Part shown: positions 3,934 through 34,086 of the stretch, piece by piece
How positions within the stretch are numbered: position 1 is the stretch's first letter
How the letters are laid out: every line of letters begins with the position of its first letter
Source of the DNA: Escherichia coli
GTDB lineage: Bacteria > Pseudomonadota > Gammaproteobacteria > Enterobacterales > Enterobacteriaceae
Strand: one strand, 5' to 3'
DNA: 64,000 nt
NCBI RefSeq assembly: GCF_024298765.1
Contig: NZ_CP101210.1
Position numbers and translations under genes: made by a program
Notes under the pieces: model-generated
Told to the model about the DNA's origin: nothing
Database searches by the model: none
Seen by the model: only the letters and a program-made list of their open reading frames with translations

Positions 3934-4184
3934 GTCGGGATTCCTGTTTTTATACGTCTGGATGTCTAAACTAGCATGAATATTCGCGGGCGCATCCTGA
4001 AGAATTGGCATAAAGCAGAAAATTTTCGCAAATGGCGTGCTGGTGACTTTTTTACTGCGTAAACGCAAGGAAAAGAAAGCAAAGGTACGGCAGTATGCAA
4101 ATAGTAATGAGAACGACTATCAATTCGACGTAGTTTTGATATTATTATGCGCAGATTTTGTGACTTGCGTCCTGGAGATACACA

Positions 4185-17415: not shown

Positions 17416-19275
17416 ATGAGCAAAGGAACGACCAGCCAGGATGCCCCGTTCGGGACATTATTGGGCTACGCCCCAGGTGGGGTAGCAATCTACTCTTCAG
17501 ATTACAGTTCTCTCGATCCGCAGGAATACGAAGATGACGCCGTATTCCGTAGCTATATCGACGACGAATATATGGGCCACAAATGGCAATGCGTTGAATT
17601 TGCTCGCCGTTTTCTCTTTCTGAATTACGGTGTGGTCTTCACTGACGTGGGTATGGCGTGGGAGATTTTCTCGCTGCGCTTCCTGCGTGAAGTGGTTAAT
17701 GACAACATCCTGCCATTGCAGGCATTTCCTAACGGCTCGCCGCGTGCGCCGGTCGCGGGTGCGCTTCTTATCTGGGATAAAGGCGGTGAATTTAAAGACA
17801 CTGGTCATGTCGCCATCATTACCCAATTGCATGGCAACAAAGTCCGTATTGCGGAACAGAACGTGATTCATTCCCCGTTACCGCAAGGGCAACAGTGGAC
17901 GCGCGAGCTGGAGATGGTGGTCGAAAACGGCTGCTATACCCTTAAAGACACTTTTGATGACACCACCATTCTCGGCTGGATGATCCAGACGGAAGATACT
18001 GAATACAGCTTACCGCAGCCGGAAATTGCAGGCGAGCTGTTGAAAATCAGCGGAGCGCGCCTGGAAAACAAAGGCCAGTTTGACGGTAAATGGCTGGATG
18101 AAAAAGATCCGCTACAAAACGCCTATGTGCAGGCCAACGGTCAGGTGATCAATCAGGATCCGTATCATTACTACACCATTACCGAGAGCGCAGAGCAGGA
18201 GCTGATTAAAGCCACCAACGAACTGCACCTGATGTATCTTCACGCAACCGACAAGGTGCTGAAAGATGACAACCTGCTGGCGCTGTTCGACATCCCAAAA
18301 ATCCTCTGGCCACGTTTGCGTCTCTCCTGGCAGCGTCGCCGTCACCATATGATCACCGGTCGTATGGATTTCTGTATGGACGAACGTGGCCTGAAGGTCT
18401 ACGAATACAACGCCGACTCCGCCTCCTGTCATACCGAAGCTGGCTTGATCCTCGAACGTTGGGCGGAGCAGGGCTATAAAGGCAACGGCTTCAATCCGGC
18501 GGAAGGGCTGATTAACGAACTGGCTGGTGCCTGGAAACACAGTCGTGCACGTCCGTTTGTCCATATCATGCAGGACAAAGATATCGAGGAAAACTATCAC
18601 GCGCAGTTTATGGAGCAGGCGCTGCACCAGGCGGGCTTTGAAACGCGTATCTTGCGCGGGCTGGATGAACTGGGCTGGGATGCTGCCGGGCAACTGATTG
18701 ATGGGGAAGGGCGACTGGTTAACTGCGTGTGGAAAACCTGGGCGTGGGAAACCGCGTTTGATCAGATTCGTGAAGTTAGCGACCGTGAGTTTGCTGCGGT
18801 GCCGATCCGTACCGGTCATCCGCAAAATGAAGTGCGTCTTATCGACGTATTGCTGCGCCCGGAAGTGCTGGTCTTTGAACCTCTGTGGACAGTGATCCCC
18901 GGCAACAAAGCGATTCTGCCGATCCTCTGGTCGCTGTTCCCGCACCATCGTTACCTGCTGGATACCGATTTCTCCGTGAATGATGAACTGGTGAAAACCG
19001 GTTATGCAGTGAAACCGATCGCCGGTCGCTGTGGCAGTAACATCGACCTCGTCAGCCATCATGAAGAGGTGCTGGACAAAACCAGCGGTAAATTTGCCGA
19101 GCAGAAAAACATCTATCAGCAACTGTGGTGTTTGCCGAAAGTGGACGGTAAATACATTCAGGTATGTACCTTCACCGTTGGCGGCAACTACGGTGGGACG
19201 TGTTTGCGCGGTGATGAATCACTGGTCATCAAAAAAGAGAGTGATATTGAACCGCTAATTGTGGTGAAAGAGTAA
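17416..19275 (+). CDS. gss: bifunctional glutathionylspermidine synthetase/amidase
   Basis: 619 aa MSKGTTSQDAPFG; N-terminal CHAP amidase Cys (WQCVEFARRF). Confidence 0.9.
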   Translation: MSKGTTSQDAPFGTLLGYAPGGVAIYSSDYSSLDPQEYEDDAVFRSYIDDEYMGHKWQCVEFARRFLFLNYGVVFTDVGMAWEIFSLRFLREVVNDNILPLQAFPNGSPRAPVAGALLIWDKGGEFKDTGHVAIITQLHGNKVRIAEQNVIHSPLPQGQQWTRELEMVVENGCYTLKDTFDDTTILGWMIQTEDTEYSLPQPEIAGELLKISGARLENKGQFDGKWLDEKDPLQNAYVQANGQVINQDPYHYYTITESAEQELIKATNELHLMYLHATDKVLKDDNLLALFDIPKILWPRLRLSWQRRRHHMITGRMDFCMDERGLKVYEYNADSASCHTEAGLILERWAEQGYKGNGFNPAEGLINELAGAWKHSRARPFVHIMQDKDIEENYHAQFMEQALHQAGFETRILRGLDELGWDAAGQLIDGEGRLVNCVWKTWAWETAFDQIREVSDREFAAVPIRTGHPQNEVRLIDVLLRPEVLVFEPLWTVIPGNKAILPILWSLFPHHRYLLDTDFSVNDELVKTGYAVKPIAGRCGSNIDLVSHHEEVLDKTSGKFAEQKNIYQQLWCLPKVDGKYIQVCTFTVGGNYGGTCLRGDESLVIKKESDIEPLIVVKE

Positions 19276-19290
19276 TACATGTTGTAGCAA

Positions 19291-19325
19291 CCCCGTACTG
19301 ATTATGAAGAATAATCAGTACGGGG
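19291..19325. terminator. perfect 15-bp-stem hairpin downstream of gss (terminator candidate)
   Basis: ccccgtactgattat-gaag-ataatcagtacgggg; no strong T-run follows on + strand. Confidence 0.45.
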
Positions 19326-19566
19326 ATTAATCAAAACATTCAACGTTTATATATTTCAATATTTATTTATTTAATATATGAATATATTAACCAGTGGAAT
19401 ACCTGTGTTTTGATTATTTCTAAAGATTTTGAATGAATGCTTATTGTCTGATACACAAGAAATAACACTCTTTTTATCGTTAAAAAAAGATATTTCACTT
19501 TGCCCATGCCGTTAAAGTCACTGATAATGCGTCCGTTCGTAAATTCAAAATGGCGTAATCTAATAT

Positions 19567-21066
19567 ATGCTAAATTTATTTGTTGGCCTTGATATATACA
19601 CGGGGCTTTTGTTATTACTTGCTCTGGCATTTGTGTTGTTCTACGAAGCAATCAATGGTTTTCATGACACGGCGAATGCGGTGGCAACCGTTATTTATAC
19701 TCGAGCCATGCAGCCACAGCTTGCCGTGGTGATGGCGGCATTTTTTAACTTTTTTGGCGTATTGCTAGGCGGACTTAGCGTTGCCTATGCCATTGTCCAT
19801 ATGTTACCAACCGATTTGTTGCTGAATATGGGGTCAACTCACGGCCTGGCGATGGTCTTTTCCATGCTGCTGGCGGCGATTATCTGGAACCTGGGAACGT
19901 GGTTCTTTGGTTTACCGGCCTCCAGTTCGCATACCTTGATTGGTGCGATTATCGGCATCGGTTTAACCAACGCGCTGTTAACCGGCTCATCGGTGATGGA
20001 TGCGTTAAACCTGCGTGAAGTGACCAAAATTTTCTCCTCGCTGATTGTTTCCCCTATCGTCGGCCTGGTCATTGCGGGAGGCCTGATATTCCTGCTGCGC
20101 CGCTACTGGAGCGGGACGAAAAAGCGTGACCGTATTCACCGCATTCCGGAAGATCGCAAAAAGAAAAAAGGCAAACGGAAGCCACCATTCTGGACGCGTA
20201 TTGCGCTGATTGTTTCCGCTGCGGGCGTGGCGTTTTCGCACGGTGCTAACGACGGGCAGAAAGGGATCGGCCTGGTGATGCTGGTACTGGTGGGGATTGC
20301 CCCTGCTGGTTTCGTCGTCAATATGAATGCGTCCGGCTATGAAATTACCCGTACCCGCGATGCCGTCACCAACTTCGAACACTACCTGCAACAGCATCCT
20401 GAACTGCCGCAGAAGTTGATTGCGATGGAACCTCCATTGCCTGCGGCATCGACTGATGGCACGCAAGTAACGGAGTTTCACTGTCATCCGGCAAATACCT
20501 TTGATGCGATTGCGCGCGTTAAAACGATGCTGCCAGGCAATATGGAAAGTTACGAGCCGTTAAGCGTGAGTCAGCGCAGCCAGCTGCGCCGCATTATGCT
20601 GTGCATCTCTGATACCTCCGCGAAGCTGGCGAAACTGCCAGGCGTCAGTAAAGAAGACCAGAACCTGCTGAAAAAACTGCGCAGCGATATGTTAAGCACC
20701 ATTGAGTACGCTCCGGTGTGGATCATCATGGCAGTAGCTCTGGCGCTCGGCATTGGCACCATGATTGGCTGGCGTCGTGTAGCGATGACCATCGGTGAGA
20801 AGATTGGTAAGCGCGGCATGACGTATGCGCAAGGCATGGCGGCACAAATGACGGCGGCAGTGTCTATCGGCCTTGCCAGTTATATTGGGATGCCCGTCTC
20901 CACAACACACGTCCTCTCGTCTGCGGTAGCAGGGACGATGGTGGTGGACGGCGGTGGGTTACAGCGTAAAACGGTAACCAGCATCCTGATGGCGTGGGTG
21001 TTTACTTTACCGGCGGCGATTTTTCTTTCTGGTGGGTTGTACTGGATAGCATTGCAGTTGATTTAA
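19567..21066 (+). CDS. pitB: low-affinity inorganic phosphate transporter
   Basis: 499 aa polytopic ORF of the PiT family. Confidence 0.88.
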
Positions 21067-21114: not shown

Positions 21115-21807
21115 CTAGTGATAACCACGCGCGGTCATAAAATCCGTAATCGCTTTTTCTGCATCAACCAGCACCTTTTCCAGTGGCTGATTGGCGTCGA
21201 TATCAACCAGTTGTGCACCGCCAAAGGTTAACTGTGGCGTTATGGCAATCTTCCTCGCCAGCGATTCCCGTTTATGGTCGGGTTTACGCGCGCAGGCAAC
21301 TTCAAGGTCAACATTGAGTTTGATGACCAGATCAGGCTTATGGCTCGCCATCCAGTGAAATGCTTTACGTTCCTGGCTTGCCAGCCATGAGACAAACCGG
21401 CCGCCTTCAACGTTAGGTGGGAACACCGTACCATCGTAAGCGCCAGGAATTTGGTCCTGAGGATAACGATCGGTTAAGACAATCAGCCCGCGACGACGAC
21501 AGGCGAGCATATGACGAAAGCGTAACAGTCGGCGGGCGACGAAAGCGGTGATCACCAGGGCCGGAACCGGACCCGGCAATTTTTTTGCCGTTTTCACTTC
21601 ATTTTTTTCAATAGTCTTGTGCAGAGACTTTCCCATCAACGGTAATTTTGTCACTGCACGACCGACATTTCCGGCCTGTTTTCCTAAATGAACTCTTTCG
21701 GCAGCACCATATTTTTCGACAACGGTAATAAGATGTTCACACACCGTTGACTTGCCTGAACCATCGCTACCAATAACGGCAATTAATGGAGGTGTTATTG
21801 ACTGCAT
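21115..21807 (-). CDS. yghT: P-loop NTPase-like protein (paralog 1 of 3)
   Basis: 230 aa; Walker [10 protein letters not shown]; shares DRYPQ and ARKPDH motifs with yghS and yghR. Confidence 0.8.
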
Positions 21808-21980
21808 GAATATATCCTTAAATTTAAATATCCATCCAAAATATTTATTTGATTAATATGTTTTTATGAAAGCGTAATTCAGGTTAATGTCACAATTAAC
21901 CATTGTCACAATAAGGTTGAACGGATATTCTGAGCACGGACCACGTAATATTCAATACATTATTTGCTGCCGGGTTTTTC

Positions 21981-22694
21981 GTGAATCAACGTAATATGTC
22001 AATAATTAATTCCACGCCAGTGCGTGTTATTGCCATTGTAGGATGTGATGGTTCAGGTAAATCGACCCTCACGGCAAGCCTGGTAAATGAACTGGCAGCA
22101 ACAATGCCAACAGAACACATTTATCTCGGGCAATCGTCCGGGCGAATTGGCGAATGGATTTCACAGCTCCCTGTTATTGGCGCACCTTTTGGGCGTTATC
22201 TGCGAAGTAAAGCGGCACATGTGCACGAAAAGCCCTCCACACCACCTGGCAATATTACTGCGCTGGTTATCTATCTGCTTTCCTGCTGGCGGGCGTACAA
22301 GTTTCGCAAAATGTTGTGTAAAAGCCAGCAAGGCTATCTGCTCATCACCGACCGCTACCCGCAGGTTGAAGTGCCGGGTTTTCGCTTTGATGGCCCGCAA
22401 TTGGCAAAAACCACGGGCGGTAACGGTTGGATAAAAATGTTAAGGCAGCGCGAGCTGAAGCTGTACCAATGGATGGCGTCTTATTTGCCCGTATTGTTGA
22501 TTCGTCTTGGCATTGATGAACAAACCGCGTTTGCGCGTAAACCTGACCACCAACTGGCGGCGTTACAGGAAAAAATCGCCGTTACGCCGCAACTGACATT
22601 TAATGGCGCAAAGATCCTTGAACTGGATGGTCGGCAACCCGCCGATGAAATTCTGCAAGCGTCACTACGCGCAATTCACGCCGCGCTTTCCTGA
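21981..22694 (+). CDS. yghS: P-loop NTPase-like protein (paralog 2 of 3)
   Basis: 237 aa from GTG (ATG alternative at 21996); Walker A GCDGSGKST. Confidence 0.8.
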   Translation: MNQRNMSIINSTPVRVIAIVGCDGSGKSTLTASLVNELAATMPTEHIYLGQSSGRIGEWISQLPVIGAPFGRYLRSKAAHVHEKPSTPPGNITALVIYLLSCWRAYKFRKMLCKSQQGYLLITDRYPQVEVPGFRFDGPQLAKTTGGNGWIKMLRQRELKLYQWMASYLPVLLIRLGIDEQTAFARKPDHQLAALQEKIAVTPQLTFNGAKILELDGRQPADEILQASLRAIHAALS

Positions 22695-22725: not shown

Positions 22726-23484
22726 ATGGACGCACTACAAACACAAACTGTTAATAGTACAACCGCGCCGCAGCCCAACTACATTCCGGGGCTGATTGCG
22801 GTGGTCGGGTGTGATGGCACCGGTAAATCCACACTGACCACCGACCTGGTGAAATCGCTGCAACAACACTGGCAAACCGAGCGGCGCTATCTGGGGCTGC
22901 TCTCGGGCGAAGACGGCGACAAAATCAAACGATTGCCGTTGGTTGGCGTCTGGCTCGAACGGCGACTGGCGGCCAAATCCTCGAAAACCCAAAGCATGAA
23001 AACCAAATCTCCAGCGCTATGGGCGGCGGTGATTATGTACTGCTTCTCGCTGCGAAGAATGGCGAATCTACGCAAGGTTCAGCGACTGGCGCAAAGTGGC
23101 GTTCTGGTGGTCAGCGATCGCTTCCCGCAGGCTGAAATTTCGGGCTTTTATTATGACGGACCGGGGATCGGCGTCGAACGTGCGACCGGGAAAATCAGCA
23201 TGTTTCTGGCGCAGCGCGAACGGCGTTTATACCAACAAATGGCGCAATACCGTCCTGAATTAATCATTCGTTTGGGGATTGATATTGATACTGCCATCTC
23301 CCGCAAGCCTGACCATGACTATGCCGAGCTGCAGGACAAAATCGGCGTCATGTCGACGATTGGCTATAACGGCACAAAAATTCTTGAGATTGATTCCAGA
23401 GCGCCCTACAGCGAAGTGCTGGAACAGGCACAGAAGGCGGTTTCTCTGGTTGCCATCGTTTCTGACCGCCGAAGTTTAACTTAA
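22726..23484 (+). CDS. yghR: P-loop NTPase-like protein (paralog 3 of 3)
   Basis: 252 aa; Walker A GCDGTGKST; DRFPQ; SRKPDH. Confidence 0.8.
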   Translation: MDALQTQTVNSTTAPQPNYIPGLIAVVGCDGTGKSTLTTDLVKSLQQHWQTERRYLGLLSGEDGDKIKRLPLVGVWLERRLAAKSSKTQSMKTKSPALWAAVIMYCFSLRRMANLRKVQRLAQSGVLVVSDRFPQAEISGFYYDGPGIGVERATGKISMFLAQRERRLYQQMAQYRPELIIRLGIDIDTAISRKPDHDYAELQDKIGVMSTIGYNGTKILEIDSRAPYSEVLEQAQKAVSLVAIVSDRRSLT

Positions 23485-23529: not shown

Positions 23530-24879
23530 TTGGCGGGTTTTAACATCAAACATTGGTTTGCAGATGGCGCGTTTCGCACCATTATTCGCAATAGCGCCTG
23601 GTTAGGCTCCAGTAATGTCGTGAGCGCTTTGCTGGGTCTGTTGGCGCTCTCGTGTGCCGGTAAAGGGATGACGCCCGCCATGTTTGGCGTACTGGTGATT
23701 GTACAATCGTACGCCAAGTCGATCAGCGATTTTATTAAGTTTCAGACATGGCAGCTGGTGGTTCAGTACGGAACACCAGCATTAACCAACAATAATCCGC
23801 AGCAATTCCGCAATGTCGTCTCATTTTCCTTCTCGCTGGATATCGTCAGCGGCGCGGTGGCGATTGTCGGCGGCATTGCCTTACTCCCTTTTCTTTCCCA
23901 TTCATTAGGTCTGGATGACCAAAGCTTTTGGCTGGCAGCGCTGTATTGCACGCTCATTCCTTCAATGGCTTCCTCCACGCCGACCGGCATTCTGCGTGCG
24001 GTAGATCGCTTCGATCTAATTGCTGTACAGCAAGCGACGAAACCTTTTCTGCGCGCAGCGGGGAGCGTCGTTGCCTGGTATTTTGACTTTGGTTTTGCGG
24101 GTTTTGTTATTGCCTGGTACGCCTCGAATCTTGTTGGCGGCACCATGTACTGGTGGTTTGCCGCACGTGAATTACGCCGCAGAAATATCCATAACGCGTT
24201 CAAATTGAATCTGTTTGAGTCTGCCCGACACATCAAAGGCGCGTGGAGTTTTGTCTGGTCAACCAACATTGCCCATTCCATCTGGTCGGCGCGTAATTCG
24301 TGCAGCACAGTGTTGGTGGGGATCGTGTTAGGACCCGCTGCCGCCGGGTTATTTAAAATCGCCATGACATTCTTCGACGCCGCCGGAACGCCAGCGGGTT
24401 TACTGGGCAAAAGTTTTTACCCAGAGGTGATGCGTTTAGATCCGCGTACCACCAGACCGTGGTTGTTAGGCGTGAAGTCAGGTTTACTGGCGGGCGGAAT
24501 CGGTATTCTGGTGGCGCTCGCGGTGTTGATTGTCGGCAAGCCGCTCATTTCGCTGGTGTTTGGCGTTAAGTATCTCGAAGCGTATGACCTGATTCAGGTG
24601 ATGCTGGGCGCAATTGTGATCTCGATGCTGGGCTTCCCTCAGGAGTCATTGCTATTGATGGCGGGAAAACAGCGCGCTTTTCTCGTGGCGCAAACCATCG
24701 CCTCAATCGGCTACATCGTATTGCTGTTCATGTTCTGTCATCTGTTTGGCGTGCTGGGAGCAGCGTTTGCTTATTTCGGTGGTCAATGTCTGGATGTGGT
24801 GCTTTCGCTAATTCCGACCTTAAAGGCATTTTTTCAGCGCCATTCCTTGCTTTATAACGCAGCCGGAGAGAAATCCTGA
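23530..24879 (+). CDS. yghQ: MOP/Wzx-like multi-pass membrane flippase-family protein (start uncertain)
   Basis: Long hydrophobic ORF; first in-frame ATG at 23668; frame open upstream to TTG at 23530. Confidence 0.65.
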   Translation: MAGFNIKHWFADGAFRTIIRNSAWLGSSNVVSALLGLLALSCAGKGMTPAMFGVLVIVQSYAKSISDFIKFQTWQLVVQYGTPALTNNNPQQFRNVVSFSFSLDIVSGAVAIVGGIALLPFLSHSLGLDDQSFWLAALYCTLIPSMASSTPTGILRAVDRFDLIAVQQATKPFLRAAGSVVAWYFDFGFAGFVIAWYASNLVGGTMYWWFAARELRRRNIHNAFKLNLFESARHIKGAWSFVWSTNIAHSIWSARNSCSTVLVGIVLGPAAAGLFKIAMTFFDAAGTPAGLLGKSFYPEVMRLDPRTTRPWLLGVKSGLLAGGIGILVALAVLIVGKPLISLVFGVKYLEAYDLIQVMLGAIVISMLGFPQESLLLMAGKQRAFLVAQTIASIGYIVLLFMFCHLFGVLGAAFAYFGGQCLDVVLSLIPTLKAFFQRHSLLYNAAGEKS

Positions 24880-25703
24880 TGATGAGAAAATATTTCCCGC
24901 TAGAGGCGAGCGAGCGTCTATTTGTTGCGATTGAAGAAGATGATGTCGTTGATGCACAGGTCAGTTTGCCGCCGACTATCGCACTAAGTTGTACCACCGA
25001 AATCATCCATGATAATTACGCGTTATGCCTGCAATTCTGGCTCAATGGCGTCAATCGCCAGGAGTTACTGCGTTTAATATGCAAACAGGCCAAAGGCGAT
25101 GAGCTGACTGCTGATGAGCGCAAACAATTTAAATACATGCGAGCGCGCTACAAGCACCTGCGTTTTGCGCAACGGCTGTATTTAAAGAAGCATCAGGCCG
25201 GATTTTTATTCGGCAAAACGACCGTTTTTTTGGGGCGTTTTCAGGACGGCTTTCGTAACGGTAAGAAAAATATTGTGTCGTATTACGGCAACCTGTTACG
25301 GGTTTATTTAAGCTCTCCGGTCTGGTCGTTGGTGAACTATTCATTACGCCATAGCCAGTTAGAAAGCGTAAGCGGTTTTATTGCCTATCGGCAAAAGCAA
25401 ATGCATACCCTGAAAGAGATAATTGCCAAACCGCGACTAACCGGCAGGGAATTTCATGATGTGCGAAAAATCATCAGCCAGCAGGTTTCTTATTACGACA
25501 CCCTAAGATCGCTTGATCCTGAAAATAAAGAAGCGTTACAGATTTCCCGCTTCCTCGCCGCCATTAATGGCCTGATGGGGGATAAACACGACGACATGGT
25601 GGCGGATGATATGGAAAACCGCCAGTCGTATGATGCACCGATGGCGCTGGATAGCGATATTCGCCAGCGCTTAGAACTGCTGATTTCGCGTTTTCCGCTA
25701 TAA
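24879..25703 (+). CDS. hypothetical cytoplasmic protein, 274 aa (island gene)
   Basis: ATG overlaps yghQ stop (TGATG); GGAGAG RBS at 24865-24870; no domain recognised. Confidence 0.6.
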   Translation: MMRKYFPLEASERLFVAIEEDDVVDAQVSLPPTIALSCTTEIIHDNYALCLQFWLNGVNRQELLRLICKQAKGDELTADERKQFKYMRARYKHLRFAQRLYLKKHQAGFLFGKTTVFLGRFQDGFRNGKKNIVSYYGNLLRVYLSSPVWSLVNYSLRHSQLESVSGFIAYRQKQMHTLKEIIAKPRLTGREFHDVRKIISQQVSYYDTLRSLDPENKEALQISRFLAAINGLMGDKHDDMVADDMENRQSYDAPMALDSDIRQRLELLISRFPL

Positions 25704-25711
25704 CCGGAGCA

Positions 25712-26275
25712 ATGATGTCATCTCGTTTGATTATTGCGCTGATTATCATGCTCTTAGCCCCGGGTGTGCAGGCACACAATTTCGTCACTGGCAAAACGGT
25801 TACCCCCGTTTATATCCAGGAAGGCGGCGAGCTGCTTCGGAATAGCGACGACGAAATTCACTACCAAAAGTGGAACAGCACCCAATTGGCGGGAAAAGTT
25901 CGCATTATTCAGTATATCGCCGGGCGTAAGTCGGCGAAGAAAAAGAACTCACTGTTAATTAAAGCAGTTGAAGCGGCAAACTTTCCGCAGGATCGTTTTC
26001 AGCCCACCACCATTGTGAACACTGATGATGCCATCTTTGGTACCGGCTATTTTGTCGTTGGCAAAATCGAAAAAAATAAACGCCGCTATCCATGGGCGCA
26101 ATTCGTTATTGACGGCAATGGACAGGGACGCGTTGCCTGGCACTTGCAGGAGCAGAGTTCAACCATTCTGGTGCTGAATAAAACCGGGCAAATTCAGTGG
26201 GCAAAGGACGGCAGCCTGACGCCGGAAGAGGTAGATCATGTCATTGCGCTGGCGCAGAAGCTGATCAATGAATAA
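25712..26275 (+). CDS. YtfJ-family secreted/periplasmic protein paralog
   Basis: 187 aa; signal peptide MMSSRLIIALIIMLLAPGVQA; strong resemblance to E. coli YtfJ as recalled (KVRxxQHIAGR, TTIVNTDDAI, VQWAKDGxLTPEEV). Confidence 0.65.
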   Translation: MMSSRLIIALIIMLLAPGVQAHNFVTGKTVTPVYIQEGGELLRNSDDEIHYQKWNSTQLAGKVRIIQYIAGRKSAKKKNSLLIKAVEAANFPQDRFQPTTIVNTDDAIFGTGYFVVGKIEKNKRRYPWAQFVIDGNGQGRVAWHLQEQSSTILVLNKTGQIQWAKDGSLTPEEVDHVIALAQKLINE

Positions 26276-26304
26276 AAATTCAAAGGATTGAGGGCGTTAG
26301 TGAG

Positions 26305-27375
26305 ATGAAGCTGGTTGAACACTACATCATGCGTGGTACGCGCCGTCTGGTGCTGATTATCGTCGGTTTTCTGATCTTTATTTTCGCCAGCTACTCCGCA
26401 CAGCGTTATCTGACCGAAGCGGCAAATGGGACATTAGCTCTTGATGTTGTGCTGGATATCGTTTTCTACAAAGTGCTGATTGCACTGGAGATGTTGTTAC
26501 CTGTTGGACTGTATGTGTCAGTTGGCGTGACGCTAGGGCAGATGTATACCGACTCGGAAATTACCGCTATCTCTGCGGCGGGGGGCAGTCCGGGACGCTT
26601 GTACAAAGCCGTTCTTTATCTGGCGATACCGCTAAGTATTTTTGTCACCCTTCTGTCGATGTATGGTCGTCCGTGGGCTTATGCGCAGATTTATCAACTG
26701 GAGCAACAGTCACAGTCGGAGCTGGATGTTCGCCAGTTGCGGGCAAAGAAATTTAACACTAACGATAACGGACGAATGATCCTTTCGCAGACGGTTGATC
26801 AGGATAATAATCGCCTGACTGATGCGCTGATTTATACTTCTACTGCTAATCGAACCCGCATTTTCCGCGCCCGTTCGGTTGATGTGGTTGACCCATCACC
26901 TGAGAAACCGACCGTTATGTTGCATAACGGGACCGCCTATCTTCTCGATCATCAGGGGCGTGACGACAACGAACAGATCTACCGTAATCTGCAATTACAT
27001 CTGAATCCGCTGGATCAAAGCCCTAACGTCAAACGCAAAGCAAAATCGGTCACGGAGCTGGCGCGCTCCGCCTTTCCTGCCGATCATGCCGAACTGCAAT
27101 GGCGACAAAGCCGTGGCCTGACAGCATTGTTGATGGCGCTGCTGGCCATTTCATTAAGTCGGGTAAAACCGCGGCAAGGGCGATTTTCAACGTTATTGCC
27201 ACTGACGTTGCTGTTTGTTGCCATTTTTTATGGCGGCGACGTCTGCCGTACGCTGGTGGCTAACGGCGCGATTCCCCTCATTCCTGGTTTGTGGTTAGTA
27301 CCCGGACTCATGCTAATGGGCCTGCTGATGTTGGTCGCACGCGACTTCTCTTTGCTGCAGAAATTTTCCCGATGA
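26305..27375 (+). CDS. LptF-like permease (YjgP/YjgQ family) paralog
   Basis: 356 aa; 6-TM pattern with large periplasmic loop; YTDSEIT and KPRQGRF motifs resembling LptF. Confidence 0.7.
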   Translation: MKLVEHYIMRGTRRLVLIIVGFLIFIFASYSAQRYLTEAANGTLALDVVLDIVFYKVLIALEMLLPVGLYVSVGVTLGQMYTDSEITAISAAGGSPGRLYKAVLYLAIPLSIFVTLLSMYGRPWAYAQIYQLEQQSQSELDVRQLRAKKFNTNDNGRMILSQTVDQDNNRLTDALIYTSTANRTRIFRARSVDVVDPSPEKPTVMLHNGTAYLLDHQGRDDNEQIYRNLQLHLNPLDQSPNVKRKAKSVTELARSAFPADHAELQWRQSRGLTALLMALLAISLSRVKPRQGRFSTLLPLTLLFVAIFYGGDVCRTLVANGAIPLIPGLWLVPGLMLMGLLMLVARDFSLLQKFSR

Positions 27376-28451
27376 ATGTTTTCAGTCGCTATTTAATCCG
27401 TCATCTCTTTCTCGGTTTTGCCGCCGCCGCAGGGCTATTGCTGCCGCTTTTTACCACCTTCAACCTGATTAACGAACTGGATGATGTCAGCCCGGGTGGT
27501 TATCGCTGGACTCAGGCGGTGCTGGTGGTGCTGATGACCTTACCGCGCACACTGGTCGAACTTTCGCCGTTTATCGCCTTATTGGGAGGGATTGTCGGCC
27601 TGGGGCAGTTATCGAAAAACAGTGAGCTTACCGCCATTCGCAGCACGGGGTTTTCTATCTTCCGTATTGCACTGGTGGCGCTGGTTGCCGGGATATTGTG
27701 GACTGTTTCATTAGGCGCGATAGATGAGTGGGTGGCGTCGCCATTGCAGCAACAGGCGCTGCAAATCAAATCGACTGCCACTGCGTTGGGGGAGGACGAT
27801 GACATTACCGGCAATATGCTGTGGGCCAGGCGTGGTAATGAATTTGTGACGGTGAAATCGCTGAACGAGCAGGGCCAGCCGGTGGACGTGGAGATATTTC
27901 ATTACCGCGATGATCTCTCGCTCGAATCCTACATTTATGCGCGCAGTGCTACCATTGAAGACGACAAAACGTGGATCCTGCATGGTGTGAATCATAAAAA
28001 ATGGCTGAATGGCAAAGAAACGCAGGAAACATCTGATAATCTTCCCTGGCAATCGGCCTTCACCAGTATGAATCTTGAAGAGTTATCGATGCCGGGAAAT
28101 ACTTTTTCTGTCCGTCAACTTAATCATTACATCCATTATTTGCAGGAAACCGGGCAACCCAGCAGCGAATACCGCCTTGCACTGTGGGAAAAACTGGGAC
28201 AACCCATCTTGACCCTGGCGATGATTTTGCTGGCTGTGCCGTTTACCTTTAGCGCCCCGCGTTCGCCTGGGATGGGTAGCCGTCTCGCTGTAGGCGTCAT
28301 CGTTGGCTTACTCACCTGGATCAGCTATCAAATCATGGTCAATCTGGGATTGTTATTTGCGTTGAGCGCACCTGTTACCGCGCTCGGTTTACCGGTAGCG
28401 TTTGTGCTGGTGGCGTTGAGCCTGGTGTATTGGTATGACAGACAACATTAA
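27372..28451 (+). CDS. LptG-like permease (YjgP/YjgQ family) paralog
   Basis: ATG at 27372 overlaps upstream stop (ATGA); MNVFSRYLIRHLF N-terminus typical of LptF/G family; 359 aa. Confidence 0.7.
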   Translation: MNVFSRYLIRHLFLGFAAAAGLLLPLFTTFNLINELDDVSPGGYRWTQAVLVVLMTLPRTLVELSPFIALLGGIVGLGQLSKNSELTAIRSTGFSIFRIALVALVAGILWTVSLGAIDEWVASPLQQQALQIKSTATALGEDDDITGNMLWARRGNEFVTVKSLNEQGQPVDVEIFHYRDDLSLESYIYARSATIEDDKTWILHGVNHKKWLNGKETQETSDNLPWQSAFTSMNLEELSMPGNTFSVRQLNHYIHYLQETGQPSSEYRLALWEKLGQPILTLAMILLAVPFTFSAPRSPGMGSRLAVGVIVGLLTWISYQIMVNLGLLFALSAPVTALGLPVAFVLVALSLVYWYDRQH

Positions 28452-28485
28452 ACCCGCCGTGGCGCAACACCACAGCGGGCTCACA

Positions 28486-29658
28486 TTACTGCTTCAGAGT
28501 AGCAAATGCCTGAATGATGGCATCGATTTGCTCACGACTGTGGGCAGCGTTTACGCTACAGCGCAGCAGCGTGATGCCTGCAGGCGCGGCAGGTGGCAGG
28601 ATAAGATTCACATAAACGCCCAGCGAAATAAGCTCGCGCCAGATGCGTAAACCTTCCTCTTTCGAACCGATTATTACTGGCACTACCGGGCTAATATGTG
28701 AACTTAACTCATAACCCAGTTTTTGCAGACCGTCATACAGATGGTTGGCGTTATCCATCAGTTTTTGCCGCAGCTCTGGTTGTGTGGAAATGGTTCTTAA
28801 CGACGAGCGCACGGTCGCAATGCAGGACGGAGAAGGAGAGGCGGTAAAAATATACGGGCGGCTGCCGTAGCGCAGCACTTCCATCGCTTCTGAACCCACG
28901 GCAAAACCACCAATGGAAGCCAAACTTTTACTGAAGGTGCCGACGATAATATCCACGTCGTCTTCAACGCCAACGGCTTCAACCAGTCCGCGGCCTGTTG
29001 CGCCTAACACGCCAAACGAATGTGCTTCATCGACAATCAAATAACCACCGAGACGACGTTTGATATCAACAATTTCTGCCAGCGGCGCAACGTCACCGAG
29101 CATACTGTAGATGCCTTCAACGATAATAATCGCCTCTTTCGCCCGTTCACCGAGGCGGACCATGCGCCGTTCCAGATCGTTGACGTCATTATGGCGGAAA
29201 CGAATAATCTCTGCGCCGCCGAGAGAACAGGCGTCATAAATACTGGCGTGGCTGTCGGCATCCAGTAACACCACGGCGTTATGGTCGGCAAGTGCGCTGA
29301 TGACACCTAAATTAGCGGTATAACCGGTTGAAAAAACGATAGCGGTAGGGCGATTGAAAAACTCGGCAATCTCTTTCTCTAACGCCAGATGCGGCGCATA
29401 ACTGCCGTTTGCCATACGAGAACCGGTGGTGCCAGTGCCTTGGGCCGCTAACGCTGCCTGACCTTCGCGGATAGCATCATGATTAAAGGTTAAACCGAGA
29501 TAATTATTGGTCCCGGCCAGAATCACTTTTTTATTGCCGATCCGGCCTTCGGTGGCGGAATACACTTCATCAATACAGGTGCCAAATGGTGTTAACCCGT
29601 TGTCACTAAATTGCAGGCGCTCGCCAGCAAGGCGCGCATATTTATCGTATAGCCCCAT
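28486..29658 (-). CDS. alpha-oxoamine synthase, serine palmitoyltransferase-like (PLP-dependent)
   Basis: 390 aa; DEAHSFG and GTFSKSLAS motifs (Lys244 codon at 28927-28929) typical of SPT/KBL/AONS family. Confidence 0.75.
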   Translation of the reverse strand: MGLYDKYARLAGERLQFSDNGLTPFGTCIDEVYSATEGRIGNKKVILAGTNNYLGLTFNHDAIREGQAALAAQGTGTTGSRMANGSYAPHLALEKEIAEFFNRPTAIVFSTGYTANLGVISALADHNAVVLLDADSHASIYDACSLGGAEIIRFRHNDVNDLERRMVRLGERAKEAIIIVEGIYSMLGDVAPLAEIVDIKRRLGGYLIVDEAHSFGVLGATGRGLVEAVGVEDDVDIIVGTFSKSLASIGGFAVGSEAMEVLRYGSRPYIFTASPSPSCIATVRSSLRTISTQPELRQKLMDNANHLYDGLQKLGYELSSHISPVVPVIIGSKEEGLRIWRELISLGVYVNLILPPAAPAGITLLRCSVNAAHSREQIDAIIQAFATLKQ

Positions 29659-29906
29659 TATTTATTCTCCAGCCATGGAAGTAGAGTTTCCATTAATTGC
29701 GCAGGGGTTTTGACATCCAGCAGAATATTAATAGGAATGGAAATATCGAATCTGTCTTCCAGCATCATTAAGAGATCCATCACTTTGATCGACTCCAGGC
29801 CAAGATCGTTGACGAGATCGCTGTCGGGCTTAATTTCCACACCGTTTTCGACCAAATCCTGTAAACAGGAAAGGATGTAATCCATTACTATTTCACGATT
29901 TACCAT
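29658..29906 (-). CDS. dedicated acyl carrier protein
   Basis: 82 aa; DLGLESIKVMDLLMMLEDRF helix-2 region with candidate phosphopantetheine Ser; stop overlaps AOS start (TAATG). Confidence 0.65.
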   Translation of the reverse strand: MVNREIVMDYILSCLQDLVENGVEIKPDSDLVNDLGLESIKVMDLLMMLEDRFDISIPINILLDVKTPAQLMETLLPWLENK

Positions 29907-29937
29907 AGAAACGTTAACACACCTTTAAACAAGACAA

Positions 29938-30852
29938 TCAAAATAGCCCGTTGCGTAATGCGTGTTCCAGGCTAATCCCGGGAAACCAATTAATATCTTC
30001 AGAAATACGGTTATTATTTGCCGACCAGTCGGCGTGGGTTAATTCACGAATTTTCGAGCGGGTCAGCATAGGTTCTTTACCTGCCAGGCGACTCAACGCA
30101 GTACTGATATCCGCAAGGCAGGTGAGTAGCGGCAGAGGAATGCCAACCATCCGCACAGAACCACAACGGGCTTCGGCGGCAAGCTGTCGTACGCGTTGCC
30201 AGTCATAGCCGCCAGCGACGCCATCGCATAATTCATAGGTTTGCGTCTGTACAGTTTCGGCGTTTAACCACTGACCCACTGCTTGCGCAAAATCGGTGAC
30301 GTGCAGGAAAGAGAGTTGTGTATCTGGCGCACCAAGTCGTGGCAGCAGGCCGCGCAGCATCCAGTCAAACAGCGGTTTTAACTCTTTATCGCCGGGACCA
30401 TACACGGCTGTCGGGCGAAAAATGCCCAGCGTAATTTCGTCAGCCATTGCGATCAGTCGTTGTTCGGCGACGTGTTTGGAATTTGCGTACCAGGAGAGTT
30501 CGGGATGGCGCGCCGCCAGCGAAGAGATAAACAGAAAACGTTGGCAAAAGCCGCTCTCTTTTGCCGCTTGCATCAGGCGCAGGCTGCCGTCAACGTTACA
30601 GCGGGTAAAAATCTCTTCTTTGTGTCCGCGCACTTGTCCGGCGCAATGGACCACCGCGCTGGCTCCGGCAACCAGTTCGCTAAGCGAATGTGTATCTTCC
30701 AGCGAACCGCGCACCCAGATGAGATTATCATTGACGTGAGCGCGGGCAGTACGCGTCAATGTGCGAACGTGAAAGCCGCGGGCGAGCAGGTTATCGATAA
30801 TATATTTACCGATAAACCCGGTAGCGCCCGTCACCGCGACAGTTTGATTCAT
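29938..30852 (-). CDS. NAD(P)-dependent epimerase/dehydratase-fold reductase
   Basis: ATG at 30852 (MNQTVAVTGATGFIGKYI), 304 aa; YANSK catalytic dyad; track ORF has an N-terminal extension overlapping the upstream gene. Confidence 0.7.
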   Translation of the reverse strand: MNQTVAVTGATGFIGKYIIDNLLARGFHVRTLTRTARAHVNDNLIWVRGSLEDTHSLSELVAGASAVVHCAGQVRGHKEEIFTRCNVDGSLRLMQAAKESGFCQRFLFISSLAARHPELSWYANSKHVAEQRLIAMADEITLGIFRPTAVYGPGDKELKPLFDWMLRGLLPRLGAPDTQLSFLHVTDFAQAVGQWLNAETVQTQTYELCDGVAGGYDWQRVRQLAAEARCGSVRMVGIPLPLLTCLADISTALSRLAGKEPMLTRSKIRELTHADWSANNNRISEDINWFPGISLEHALRNGLF

Positions 30853-32573
30853 GCCAGGGATTCCTGCACATGAAGGCTTGCAGCATAAGCCTTCTGATAA
30901 CGTTTTTTCGCTTCCGCACGGGCAGGCTTGCCGGAGGACGTTCGGGGAATACTGTGGGGCGGCAACAGATCGATAGCCGCGGTCACGCCAAATTCGCTTT
31001 GGATCCGTGCTACCAGTGCGTGGATAAGCTGCCCACGACGTTCTTCGTCGCTGATCCGACACTGGATCTGCAAAATGATTTTTTCCTGGGCGGTAACAAA
31101 AGCAATCGCATCGCCAGAATGAATTTCCGGTTCCTGTTCCGCAATGTATTCAATATCCTGCGGCCAGATATTACGGCCACGAATAATAATCAGATCTTTA
31201 ATGCGTCCGGTGACATACAGATAACCGTCCAGCAGATAACCGAGGTCGCCGGTGTCTAACCAGCCCGTCGCGGCAATCTCGTCTTGCGAAACCTGGTCGC
31301 CAAAGTACCCGCTCATCAGGCTGGGGCCGGAGATGCAAATATGGCCTACCACACGTTCCGCGACAGGTATATCTGCTTCATTGCGGATTTCAATGCCATG
31401 TTCCGGCAACGCTTTACCGCAGTTGACGAAAGTCGATACGGCGCGTGTTTCAGCACCCGGCGCGACGGCTTTACCCTGGTATTCGAGGATGTCGCGATCC
31501 ACTTCGTTAACCACAACCCCGCAGGCTTCATCAGAGAAGCTGACAGCCAGCGCATTTTCTGCCAGTCCGTAGCACGGCATGAAAGTTTTATCGTCAAAGT
31601 TAACCTGACGAAAACATTCAGCGAATTGATGGAGTTGTTCTGCGGAGATCGGTTCTGCTCCAATACCAGCGACGCGCCAGCAGGAAAGATCCAGTTCAGC
31701 GAGATCTTTTTCATTCACGCGGCGCTGGCACAATTCATAGCCAAACGGCGGTGCAACGGAAACGGTGCCGCGATTTTTACTGATCAATTTAAGCCATTGC
31801 AGAGGACGCATGGCAAAATCCTGAGTGCGCAAATAATCTACTGAAAGCTGCGTGGCGACGGGGGTCAGGAGAAAGCCGACCAGTCCCATATCATGGTAGA
31901 AAGGCAGCCAGGAGACGCAGCGGTCGCCAGGGCGTAATTTAATGCCATCGTGGCTTATAGCACGTAGATTAGCCATCACTTCGTGATGGGTGATAATGAC
32001 GCCACGGGGAAAACGGGTGCTGCCGGAGGTGTACTGGAGGTAGGCGATATCGTTCGGAACTGGACGCTGGAGCGCAACATCGGCTTCCGGTAATGCCTTA
32101 AACCAGGCGTGGCTTAAAACATGTAATTCGGGGTTGTTGTTATGCGTCGCGGCATTGACCAGCGGTAACCACTCATCACCAGTGATAATGGCTGCGGGCT
32201 GGCAACTTGCCAGTAAACCCTGCAGTTTGGCGCTCCAGGAATCCCGCTGACCGACGCCCATTGGAATCGCCAACGGGACGGCGACTAAGCCGGCACACTG
32301 GCAGGAAAAAAAAGCCTCTACAAACCCGCTACTCGTTTCGGCAATCAGCGCCACGCGATCGCCTTTTTTCAGGTTCAGCGATAACAACCGCTTCGCACCA
32401 GCTTCGGCACGCGCTTTTAACGTCTGATATTCCAGTTGATCTTCAAGTTGGCAACGTCTGTCATAAAAATTCATTCCGGCGCTACTCAGAGCGGCGTAGT
32501 CCAAAGCATCAACCAGCGTTGGAAAATCGGCATAGCGCATAGGTAGGGAATGCGTAAAGATTTTATTAGACAT
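30849..32573 (-). CDS. fatty acyl-AMP ligase / acyl-ACP synthetase-like adenylating enzyme
   Basis: About 574 aa from ATG at 32573; YTSGSTRFPRG core motif; GRIKDLIIIRGRNIWPQDIE; stop overlaps next start. Confidence 0.7.
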   Translation of the reverse strand: MSNKIFTHSLPMRYADFPTLVDALDYAALSSAGMNFYDRRCQLEDQLEYQTLKARAEAGAKRLLSLNLKKGDRVALIAETSSGFVEAFFSCQCAGLVAVPLAIPMGVGQRDSWSAKLQGLLASCQPAAIITGDEWLPLVNAATHNNNPELHVLSHAWFKALPEADVALQRPVPNDIAYLQYTSGSTRFPRGVIITHHEVMANLRAISHDGIKLRPGDRCVSWLPFYHDMGLVGFLLTPVATQLSVDYLRTQDFAMRPLQWLKLISKNRGTVSVAPPFGYELCQRRVNEKDLAELDLSCWRVAGIGAEPISAEQLHQFAECFRQVNFDDKTFMPCYGLAENALAVSFSDEACGVVVNEVDRDILEYQGKAVAPGAETRAVSTFVNCGKALPEHGIEIRNEADIPVAERVVGHICISGPSLMSGYFGDQVSQDEIAATGWLDTGDLGYLLDGYLYVTGRIKDLIIIRGRNIWPQDIEYIAEQEPEIHSGDAIAFVTAQEKIILQIQCRISDEERRGQLIHALVARIQSEFGVTAAIDLLPPHSIPRTSSGKPARAEAKKRYQKAYAASLHVQESLA

Positions 32574-32600
32574 ATACACCACGAAAAAATTGGATATCAA

Positions 32601-32943
32601 AAATAAAATGACAATAATGCGGTGGATTATATAGGCATAAAAGATAAATGAGATAGTATTTTCATCAGTGTGAAAATGAACATTGATTTAAATAATGAGT
32701 TTGAGTTTTTTTGTTTTTATTGTGAATGATATTTAATTTATGAATATATTAAGAAGAAGCCTTGTCCGGTCGCCTTAAATCGACAAAAGGCATTGTGGCG
32801 CTTCTGTGTAGTCTCTGACCTTATCGTAATCATTAATAATACTATTTATTCGTCGTTTGTATTCATTGGGTTGATTGTTAAGGTGCCGTTCGTTGCTGTT
32901 GCAACCTGTTTGTCACCGTTAATTATTTGTTACCCACAGAACT
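32601..32943. promoter_or_regulatory. AT-rich divergent intergenic region (promoters for lipid operon and yghO)
   Basis: About 340 bp markedly AT-rich with A/T tracts, flanked by divergent start codons. Confidence 0.5.
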
Positions 32944-34086
32944 ATGGAATGCGATCTGCTGATGATTAAAATTGAAAAAGTAATTAATAAAAATGACCTT
33001 AAGGCATTTATCGCTTTTCCGTCATCACTTTATCCCGACGATCCAAACTGGATACCCCCTTTATTCATTGAACGCAACGAGCATTTGTCTGCGAAAAATC
33101 CGGGGACGGACCATATCATCTGGCAGGCGTGGGTGGCAAAAAAAGCGGGGCAGATAGTTGGGCGTATTACCGCGCAAATCGATACCTTGCACCGCGAGCG
33201 TTACGGCAAAGATACCGGTCATTTCGGCATGATTGACGCCATTGATGATCCGCAGGTTTTTGCCGCGTTGTTTGGCGCAGCGGAAGCGTGGTTGAAGTCA
33301 CAAGGTGCAAGTAAGATCAGCGGTCCTTTCAGCCTGAATATCAATCAGGAAAGCGGATTACTGATTGAAGGTTTCGATACACCACCCAGTGCGATGATGC
33401 CACACGGTAAACCGTGGTATGCCGCGCATATTGAACAACTGGGTTATCACAAAGGCATTGATTTACTGGCGTGGTGGATGCAGCGAACCGATCTCACTTT
33501 CTCTCCGGCGCTAAAAAAACTGATGGATCAGGTGCGCAAAAAAGTGACCATTCGCTGCATCAATCGCCAGCGGTTTGCCGAAGAGATACAGATCCTGCGT
33601 GAGATTTTCAATTCTGGCTGGCAGCACAACTGGGGATTTGTGCCGTTTACCGAACATGAATTCGCGACCATGGGCGATCAACTTAAATATCTGGTGCCGG
33701 ACGATATGATCTACATCGCTGAGATTGATTCTGCACCCTGCGCGTTTATTGTTGGCTTGCCGAACATCAACGAGGCGATTGCCGATCTGAACGGATCGCT
33801 CTTTCCCTTCGGCTGGGCAAAATTGCTGTGGCGTTTGAAAGTCAGCGGTGTGCGAACTGCGCGAGTGCCGCTGATGGGCGTGCGGGACGAGTATCAGTTC
33901 AGCCGCATCGGCCCGGTAATTGCGCTGTTATTGATTGAAGCCTTACGCGATCCGTTTGCCCGTCGGAAGATCGATGCGCTGGAGATGTCATGGATCCTCG
34001 AAACCAATACAGGCATGAATAACATGCTGGAACGCATTGGGGCGGAGCCGTACAAGCGTTACCGATTGTATGAAAAGCAGATTTGA
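32944..34086 (+). CDS. yghO: GNAT-fold acyltransferase-like protein (uninterrupted reading frame)
   Basis: 380-aa ORF from ATG 32944 (alternative ATG 32962); divergent from lipid operon. Confidence 0.65.
   Translation: MECDLLMIKIEKVINKNDLKAFIAFPSSLYPDDPNWIPPLFIERNEHLSAKNPGTDHIIWQAWVAKKAGQIVGRITAQIDTLHRERYGKDTGHFGMIDAIDDPQVFAALFGAAEAWLKSQGASKISGPFSLNINQESGLLIEGFDTPPSAMMPHGKPWYAAHIEQLGYHKGIDLLAWWMQRTDLTFSPALKKLMDQVRKKVTIRCINRQRFAEEIQILREIFNSGWQHNWGFVPFTEHEFATMGDQLKYLVPDDMIYIAEIDSAPCAFIVGLPNINEAIADLNGSLFPFGWAKLLWRLKVSGVRTARVPLMGVRDEYQFSRIGPVIALLLIEALRDPFARRKIDALEMSWILETNTGMNNMLERIGAEPYKRYRLYEKQI

Follow-up and report, generated by a model that had tools for sequence, protein, structure and literature searches.

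We asked what two genes without an assigned function do in the midst of the sphingolipid genes of Escherichia coli. The DNA that we analysed, hereafter the window, is a stretch of 64,000 nucleotides (nt) from RefSeq assembly GCF_024298765.1 (contig NZ_CP101210.1), and its positions 24879-26275 are part of a bacterial ceramide/sphingolipid cluster on the E. coli chromosome. They hold the gene for a protein of 274 amino acids (aa) and, directly after it, a gene for a YtfJ-like protein that we call YtfJ2. An initial annotation, made from the letters of the window, had placed two open reading frames (ORFs) here and given neither a function; both ORFs are where it put them, and in E. coli neither gene has an assigned function. 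Our analysis identifies the 274-aa protein as a divergent CHAD-fold protein, a statement of fold and family that we make with high confidence, CHAD ligand binding being a prediction. YtfJ2 is a secreted, cysteine-free member of the YtfJ family. Both are in our view good candidates for a part in the synthesis or export of a charged sphingolipid.

We modelled the 274-aa protein with AlphaFold2 on 23 Enterobacterales sequences. The model (predicted local distance difference test score 92.3, predicted template-modelling score 0.89) is all-helical and forms two four-helix bundles with the pseudo-twofold symmetry of CHAD domains, the fold of the 'long' CHAD type. We also aligned 80 members of the family, down to ~20% identity, and only this broader profile reached CHAD at the sequence level: its best match among PDB sequences was the CHAD protein 6qv5 (E 0.003). 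In the alignment of profile and 6qv5, R88/K92/R95 and H193/R196 fall on the CHAD motif H-x-x-R-x-x-x-[KR]-R-x-R-Y, and G119..D123 and G234..D238 fall on L-G-x-x-x-D, the second of these reading N230-G-x-M-G-x-x-H-D. Invariant or nearly so throughout the 80 sequences are R88, K92, R95, H105, G119, D123, F192, H193, R196, K197, N230, M233, G234, H237, D238 and Y251. The CHAD motif is thus present in both bundles but only in part, as the histidine of the first bundle is not conserved and S200 takes the place of a basic residue. A test for internal repeats was marginal (P 0.016). In solved CHAD domains, the basic residues of the motif line a surface and a pore that bind polyphosphate (polyP), and mutation of H-x-x-R-x-x-x-R abolishes binding (PMC6537752).

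The 274-aa protein shares with CHAD domains of PF05235 (Ricinus RcCHAD 6QV5, Chlorobium CtCHAD 3E0S, Streptomyces PptA 6RN5 and the C-terminal domain of E. coli YgiF, 5A61) the predicted fold, a length of ~270-300 aa and co-linear basic motifs, R/K-x-x-x-K-x-L-R-F in bundle 1 and H-x-x-R-K in bundle 2, with G-x-x-Q/H-D after each. Like them it is basic overall (isoelectric point 9.2; family median 9.28), and it has no signal peptide. Unlike them, it carries a conserved N-terminal extension of ~40 residues (A..DD.VD....LP), and its gene neighbours are a MOP flippase-like gene and Tmk-like kinase genes instead of PPK, PPX or CYTH. PF05235 was the only Pfam family to recur among the members (17 of the 80 at E<=0.1, one at E<=1e-3); its hidden Markov model (HMM) matched neither the E. 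coli protein nor any of the 23 Enterobacterales members, and a Pfam search with the alignment of these 23 gave no match. Neither PHROGs nor the PDB yielded a sequence match to the single protein, nor did the PDB to the Enterobacterales profile. A Foldseek search against AFDB50 returned orthologues from Sphingomonas, Zymomonas, Acetobacter, Komagataeibacter, Commensalibacter and Pseudomonas veronii that UniProt names 'CHAD domain-containing protein', and E. coli entries named 'Ybl138' or 'Uncharacterized'. A word-indexed search gathered 343 clusters at 90% identity, all named 'hypothetical' except one 'CHAD domain-containing' and one 'TPR repeat protein, clustered with yghQ'; at 50% identity and E<=1e-3 the family has 300 representatives. 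What had been listed as an unknown protein is thus, by the AlphaFold2 model and the profile, a divergent CHAD-fold protein.

The resemblance of the second protein to YtfJ is confirmed by the family models. TIGR01626 matches residues 2-185 of YtfJ2 with 212.5 bits (cut-off 151.1), PF09695 matches with E 1.4e-59, and identity to K-12 YtfJ is 54%. RefSeq calls it 'YtfJ family protein' and starts it at 25715 (186 aa), one codon after the ORF start at 25712; the later start is better spaced from the GGAG at 25706-25709. The N-terminus, MMSSRLIIALIIMLLAPGVQA followed by HNF after the cut, is a classical Sec signal peptide: its n-region is basic, the hydrophobic stretch counts 12 residues, and V-Q-A precedes the cleavage site; in 21 homologues A21 and H22 are invariant and the residues before them vary. 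The protein has a thioredoxin fold and contains no cysteine at all, which excludes thiol-disulfide or peroxidase chemistry. It holds an invariant basic segment, I-A-G-R-x-S-A-K-K-K-N, of which G-R-x-S-A-K-K-K-N lies between strand 63-70 and helix 75-89; judged by the order of secondary-structure elements, not by residue alignment, this segment would sit at the CxxC position of related oxidoreductases. E. coli YtfJ (b4216) and Haemophilus HI0045 share with YtfJ2 the match to TIGR01626 and PF09695, the signal peptide and the invariant residues including I-A-G-R-x-S-A-K-x-K-N. TlpA, DsbE/CcmG, ResA, Bcp and Tpx match in fold but are 6-17% identical to YtfJ2, which lacks their CxxC or peroxidatic cysteine. 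A PDB sequence search with YtfJ2 found no match.

We also found that both genes are, on the evidence of RefSeq annotation, presence in 4115 of 5426 complete E. coli genomes and hundreds of conserved homologues each, real genes and not chance ORFs. The stop codon of yghQ (TGA, 24877-24879) overlaps by 1 nt the ATG at 24879 with which the 274-aa ORF begins (TGATG), as the initial annotation had noted, and GGAGAG stands 8 nt upstream of this start. RefSeq labels the gene 'hypothetical protein'. The features of the locus are the following.

21115..21807, minus strand: yghT, thymidylate-kinase-like P-loop protein (ORF list and RefSeq annotation)
21981..22694, plus strand: yghS, Tmk-like P-loop paralogue, probably the first gene of the plus-strand operon
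22726..23484, plus strand: yghR, Tmk-like P-loop paralogue
23530..24879, plus strand: full-length yghQ (449 aa), MOP/Wzx-like flippase-family membrane protein with weak matches to MOP flippase HMMs
24879..25703, plus strand: 274-aa gene, cytoplasmic basic protein of divergent CHAD fold, start overlapping the yghQ stop
25712..26275 (likely true start 25715), plus strand: YtfJ2 (187 aa), YtfJ-family paralogue with Sec signal peptide and thioredoxin fold, no cysteine
26305..27375, plus strand: lptF2, paralogue of the lipopolysaccharide permease gene lptF (TIGR04407, 319.8 bits)
27372..28451, plus strand: lptG2, start overlapping the end of lptF2 (TIGR04408, 310 bits)
28449..28483, no strand: GC-rich hairpin of 16 bp between the convergent lptG2 and spt (consensus scan only)
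28486..29658, minus strand: spt, serine palmitoyltransferase (NF047599, 598.6 bits; cut-off 500)
29658..29906, minus strand: acpR, specialised acyl carrier protein (ACP; RefSeq annotation, literature assignment)
29938..30852, minus strand: cerR/epi, SDR-type reductase (NCBIfam, RefSeq annotation, literature assignment)
30849..32573, minus strand: aasR, fatty acyl-AMP ligase/acyl-AcpR synthetase (NF006624, 860.9 bits)
32944..34086, plus strand: yghO, homologue of bacterial ceramide synthase (aca/bCerS); its BL21 counterpart ECD_02850 is assigned as the homologue of CC_1154 (PMC9386255)

The order of the cluster is yghT, then yghS-yghR-yghQ-274-aa gene-ytfJ2-lptF2-lptG2, then spt-acpR-cerR-aasR, then yghO (cerS). 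RefSeq places pitB before yghT, which is on the minus strand, and glcC after yghO, and has the genes for Spt, ACP, SDR and fatty acyl-AMP ligase on the minus strand. On the plus strand the gaps from yghS to lptG2 are 31, 45, -1, 8 and 29 nt, followed by a 4-nt overlap, and the first strong hairpin is the one at 28449-28483, after lptG2. Short gaps and a first hairpin in this place fit a single yghS-to-lptG2 operon, and the hairpin likely ends both this transcription unit and the one on the spt side. A promoter-like site near yghS (21903-21931) is a consensus match only, and in the scan of the region promoter and terminator consensus counts did not exceed those in shuffled sequence. The region of the gene pair holds no Rfam family and no notable repeats. 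With a GC content of ~51% in the locus and 47.5-48.4% in the pair, base composition gives no hint of a recent island. An AT-rich stretch (GC ~0.40) lies on either side of the locus, one at 32600-33399 in the divergent intergenic region of aasR and yghO and one at 19000-19799 upstream of pitB. Both are candidates for the regulation of a locus that seems not to be expressed in the laboratory.

Several other genes of the cluster deserve comment. NCBIfam and RefSeq name the permeases at 26305-28451 as LptF and LptG equivalogs above cut-off. Most E. coli genomes are thus annotated with two lptF/lptG pairs, and the copies at this locus are better called lptF2/lptG2. As annotated, cerR (29938-30852) opens directly with a Rossmann G-x-x-G-x-x-G and has no signal peptide; a longer ORF of 374 aa extends upstream and overlaps aasR, and it does not look like a signal sequence either. 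Caulobacter CerR is reported to be periplasmic (PMC11087976). YghR, YghS and YghT are 34-36% identical to one another, share the motifs GxDG[S/T]GKST, DR[YF]PQ and ARKPDH, and match the dTMP-kinase HMM weakly, below its cut-off. We rejected the possibility that they are PPK2-type polyP kinases, which had no HMM support. PDB sequence searches with YghT and YghS and a Pfam search with YghT gave nothing informative.

The initial annotation had spoken of lipid genes at the locus, and these can be specified as ceramide/sphingolipid genes by the spt match and by published enzymology. In BL21(DE3), ECD_02851-02854 are aasR, epi/cerR, acpR and spt, ECD_02850 is yghO, the ceramide-synthase homologue, and BL21 AasR, AcpR and Spt have been assayed biochemically (PMC9386255). 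As in rhodobacterial ceramide clusters, spt occurs together with acpR, aasR, cerR and an adjacent cerS. In Caulobacter, sphingolipid transport requires LptF2/LptG2, which work with the housekeeping LptB, according to a preprint that also depicts the locus of E. coli UTI89, reports lptC2 as restricted to Caulobacter and describes the periplasmic and outer-membrane steps of sphingolipid transport as unknown (10.64898/2026.04.12.717747). An earlier paper from the group notes that no flippase has been identified (PMC11087976). Toxicity seen with lptF2/G2 in Caulobacter is relieved by deletion of spt. The Caulobacter crescentus locus CC_1152-CC_1168 has in common with that of E. coli the ceramide-synthesis genes, the LptF2/G2 paralogues and a candidate MOP-type flippase (CC_1166). 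It comprises Spt/AcpR/AasR/CerR/bCerS, CpgABC and LptF2/G2/C2; the E. coli locus is without head-group genes of the cpgA/B/C type and without lptC2. We considered either protein of the pair as the missing LptC2 and rejected this on fold, YtfJ2 being an alpha/beta thioredoxin and the CHAD-like protein all-helical without a signal peptide, in place of a beta-jellyroll.

We next examined the neighbourhood of the CHAD-like gene. A pattern scan with a 25-sequence query over one genome per GTDB species gave 143 confirmed relatives; 79 loci were kept, and their neighbours were found by tblastn with all locus proteins. In 70 of the 79 loci yghQ lies directly upstream of the CHAD-like gene on the same strand, at an extrapolated distance with a median of 10 nt (mostly -10 to +17; 70 loci, several orders), and loci without yghQ are few. 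The initial annotation had proposed that the 274-aa gene is co-transcribed with yghQ, and the 1-nt overlap together with this conserved adjacency supports the proposal. One to three yghR/S/T-like genes stand beside the CHAD-like gene, again in 70 of 79 loci. The loci coupled to yghQ and the kinases belong to Enterobacterales, Rhodanobacteraceae, Sphingomonadales and Acetobacteraceae. We found spt within 10 kb in 44 of the 79, comprising 39 of 46 Enterobacterales loci and all five from Rhodanobacteraceae; none of the 20 Sphingomonadales or six Acetobacteraceae loci had it in that range, and in these two groups sphingolipid genes are known to be scattered. Rhodanobacteraceae carry aasR-cerR-acpR-spt-yghQ-CHAD-like on one strand, an order independent of the enterobacterial layout. 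As far as gene neighbourhoods can tell, the conserved core is made up of Tmk-like kinases, a MOP flippase-like protein and a CHAD-like protein in sphingolipid-making taxa, and the 274-aa gene is tied most closely to yghQ and the yghR/S/T kinases, more so than to spt itself.

Some of these genomes show variations on the module. In Sphingobium, Sphingomonas, Acetobacteraceae and a betaproteobacterial metagenome-assembled genome, a glycosyltransferase of family 4 (GT4; 34-75% identical) adjoins the kinase/yghQ/CHAD-like module, which hints that the product of the module is glycosylated in those taxa; the E. coli locus has no such gene. Luteibacter has a tandem duplication of the CHAD-like gene after yghQ, and a 564-aa protein (P0242) consists of two fused CHAD-like units. 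A scaffold of 'Martelella alba' BGMRC 2031 carries a full enterobacterial-type locus in a Serratia-like order, with proteins 61-78% identical to those of E. coli; this assembly is probably contaminated or misassigned.

YtfJ2 is the enterobacterial addition to this arrangement. It follows the CHAD-like gene in 44 of the 46 Enterobacterales loci (median gap 39.5 nt) and is present in none of the non-enterobacterial loci among the 79. Where lptF2G2 sit upstream and reversed (Sodalis, Rosenbergiella, Erwinia and others), ytfJ2 stays beside the CHAD-like gene. YtfJ2 might in principle replace the missing LptC2/LptA-type bridge for an LptB2F2G2 sphingolipid extractor: it is periplasmic, it is encoded immediately upstream of lptF2-lptG2 in 30 loci, and the restriction of lptC2 to Caulobacter and the open periplasmic steps leave room for such a protein (10.64898/2026.04.12.717747). 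We regard this as very unlikely, because a thioredoxin-like fold is not the beta-jellyroll of LptC, LptA and the periplasmic domains of LptF/G, and because in the rearranged loci YtfJ2 goes with yghQ and the CHAD-like gene and not with lptF2G2.

We then assessed the distribution of the locus within the species. At >=80% coverage, 4115 of the 5426 genomes (~76%) carry the pair; lptF2G2 occurs in 4105 and spt-acpR in 4080, and this near-equal prevalence indicates that they are kept or lost as one block. Of the 4177 matches to the pair, a single one falls on a record classed as a plasmid, as does one match each for spt-acpR and lptF2G2. In K-12 MG1655, an IS5 element (IS5LO/insH9; 3130146-3131340) lies between a truncated yghQ and yghO, in place of the yghQ 3' end, the 274-aa gene, ytfJ2, lptF2, lptG2, spt, acpR, cerR and aasR (window ~24600-32900). 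On this comparison K-12 lost the locus through an IS5-associated deletion, which explains why the 274-aa gene and ytfJ2 carry no y-name. The 355-aa YghQ of K-12 is a remnant, and phenotypes reported for K-12 yghQ need to be read in that light; the papers on yghQ or yghR/S/T that we found concern the truncated K-12 gene or merely list the genes in a screen table, and were uninformative. The locus occupies the same chromosomal site in other Escherichia, Pseudocitrobacter, Hafnia and Citrobacter. The site shared by these genera marks it as ancestral and not a strain-specific island, and the word 'island' in the initial annotation has to be dropped.

Of the 5426 genomes, 5417, K-12 among them, have the core gene ytfJ in a place of its own, and 4115-4172 have the YtfJ2 copy. 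With 54% identity between the two and ytfJ kept at a separate locus, YtfJ2 is by these comparisons a paralogue of ytfJ (b4216) and not its orthologue. Unlike b4216, it lies at a different locus, occurs in ~76% of E. coli and is co-inherited with the sphingolipid genes. The link to the lipid genes proposed by the initial annotation thus holds for the copy at this locus; it does not extend to the YtfJ family, which is widespread in genomes with and without the locus.

Taken together, these data suggest an accessory function for the pair at the sphingolipid locus, with CHAD-like ligand binding at YghQ and lipid handling by YtfJ2 in the periplasm, a reading that we put forward tentatively, as plausible but somewhat short of probable. 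The CHAD-like protein would be translated together with the MOP-family flippase-like YghQ. Its residues R88, K92, R95, H193, R196 and K197 would bind a phosphate-rich anionic ligand, which may be either a (pyro/oligo)phosphorylated head group made by YghR/S/T or polyP serving as phosphate donor. A YghR/S/T product is considered as ligand because enzymes of the NMP-kinase (nucleoside monophosphate kinase) type transfer phosphate to phosphate acceptors and because the lipids that MOP flippases handle are typically pyrophosphate-linked. The CHAD-like protein would present or retain this ligand at the cytoplasmic face of YghQ, where the anionic lipid, presumably a ceramide derivative, would be completed and then flipped by YghQ. 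Once this lipid has been flipped, YtfJ2 would bind or modify its head group in the periplasm, either ahead of the LptB2F2G2-type extractor, for which lptF2 and lptG2 are the next genes, or side by side with it. Contacts with YghQ or LptF2G2 are putative, and the sphingolipid role of the pair is guilt by association: co-location with spt, matching prevalence in E. coli and occurrence in sphingolipid-producing taxa.

Several observations, given in this and the next two paragraphs, weigh against this reading. Extracts of BL21 with empty vector formed no 3-oxo-sphinganine, and the locus seems silent in laboratory conditions. Caulobacter is the best-studied model for sphingolipids, and published descriptions of its locus include no CHAD-like gene, no YtfJ and no Tmk-like kinase trio. 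The thioredoxin fold is not known from lipid carriers. The E. coli 274-aa protein falls below every Pfam and NCBIfam threshold, and its second bundle has S200 where the CHAD motif has its second basic position. Signal peptides occur in 20 of the 80 sampled family members, all distant, and the contexts of distant secreted members and fusions are heterogeneous without a common theme (PAP2, flagellar genes, APH-kinase fusion, TonB, GT4). Two of the secreted relatives, P0352 and P0355, are ~980 aa long and have, besides a signal peptide, two CHAD-like domains and one domain that resembles APH/protein kinases (HGDLKPxN); such APH-type domains in secreted distant relatives are the only kinase fusions that we saw in the family.

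Pluralibacter has an orphan CHAD-like gene (57-60% identical) away from yghQ, the kinases and spt. It lies between genes for a BCCT transporter and an amidohydrolase, with an OlsC/LpxO-like lipid hydroxylase gene ~3 kb upstream. Orphan copies outside any lipid locus are what one might expect if the 274-aa protein were an ordinary polyP-granule protein ('phosin') without a link to lipids, its place after yghQ being a historical accident. The CHAD fold and motifs fit this too, and characterised CHAD domains bind polyP specifically (PMC6537752). The usual genomic partners of CHAD proteins, polyP enzymes (CYTH/TTM, PPK, PPX) that are fused to them or share an operon, are missing at the locus, which counts against our preferred reading and also against a phosin. 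A phosin would also leave unexplained the tight adjacency or overlap with yghQ in 70 of 79 alpha- and gammaproteobacterial loci of several gene orders, and the loss of the 274-aa gene together with the lipid genes in E. coli; we think it quite unlikely. Translational coupling and conserved adjacency to yghQ would equally suit a structural or regulatory subunit of YghQ (a cytoplasmic plug, assembly factor or gate) that has kept the fold and lost the binding of a phosphate-rich ligand. Strong divergence from canonical CHAD, with no Pfam match, and the rapid evolution of the protein also point in this direction. The invariant residues, however, are those of the basic CHAD motif positions (R88, H193 and R196, plus K92, R95 and K197), and that they stay unchanged through 80 sequences, at identities as low as ~20%, speaks for an anion-binding site that has been kept. 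A subunit of this kind is therefore unlikely in our view.

For YtfJ2, the copies at the locus in other genera show the same degree of identity (55-72%) to K-12 YtfJ and to the protein of the window. This shallow split and the presence of core ytfJ in K-12, which has no locus, indicate that the biochemical activity of the family is probably the same in both copies and not specific to sphingolipids. Both proteins of the pair are, moreover, the fastest-evolving of the locus, and YtfJ2 is the least conserved: among Escherichia species the 274-aa protein is 90% and YtfJ2 87% identical, compared to 94-99% for most neighbours (cerR 92%). In the band of 90-95% DNA identity there are 510 E. coli genomes for the pair, two for spt-acpR and none for lptF2G2. 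This faster evolution could stem from a relaxation of constraint, from diversifying selection or from recombination between alleles. YtfJ2 may accordingly be a redundant or diverging duplicate of the housekeeping YtfJ with no specific sphingolipid role, as its low conservation, the identity of other genera's copies to K-12 YtfJ, the invariant motifs that both proteins share and the near-universal core gene would suggest. Yet YtfJ2 follows the CHAD-like gene at short gaps in nearly all Enterobacterales loci, between genera with ~50% protein divergence, stays there when lptF2G2 move and is lost with the locus in E. coli. We consider a mere duplicate somewhat unlikely and retain periplasmic lipid handling as the preferred role.

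A wider and more speculative version of the preferred reading, which we rate as improbable, is that YghR/S/T, YghQ and the CHAD-like protein form a conserved alpha- and gammaproteobacterial machine for the assembly and flipping of a lipid whose head group contains pyro- or oligophosphate, with YtfJ2 as a periplasmic factor. Ceramide di- or triphosphate or a phospho-glyco-ceramide would be examples of such a lipid, the three NMP-kinase-like enzymes adding successive phosphates. The CHAD-like protein would then be a recycled polyP-binding module that holds the phosphate chain, or delivers a polyP donor, at the flippase, and in Enterobacterales the transfer of the anionic sphingolipid from flippase to LptB2F2G2 would fall to YtfJ2 as the factor so far missing.

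The ceramide genes and LptF2/G2 of the locus were known before, as was the automatic CHAD label on distant orthologues. The ceramide-locus papers, including 10.64898/2026.04.12.717747, PMC9386255 and PMC11087976, make no mention of the 274-aa gene or ytfJ2. In the literature that we searched, no paper links CHAD or Ybl138 with sphingolipids, and we found neither recognition of the E. coli 'hypothetical/Ybl138' protein as CHAD-like, nor the near-universal coupling of the CHAD-like gene to yghQ and yghRST, nor a cysteine-free YtfJ paralogue at this locus with a transport or modification hypothesis.

In conclusion, a complete sphingolipid locus is present in about three quarters of E. coli genomes, pathogens and BL21 among them, and is absent from K-12; its absence there explains why the accessory genes of the locus have never been studied. 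The pair provides two conserved candidates for the flippase-side and periplasmic steps, a CHAD-fold protein tied to YghQ and the kinases and a secreted, cysteine-free YtfJ2. With the pair, the CHAD fold, hitherto linked to polyP granules and polyP enzymes, enters a membrane-lipid context, and the long-orphan YtfJ family gains a first functional lead. If the phosphate-headed lipid machine were to prove true, it would mean a new class of lipid in E. coli and the first role for CHAD outside polyP granules.

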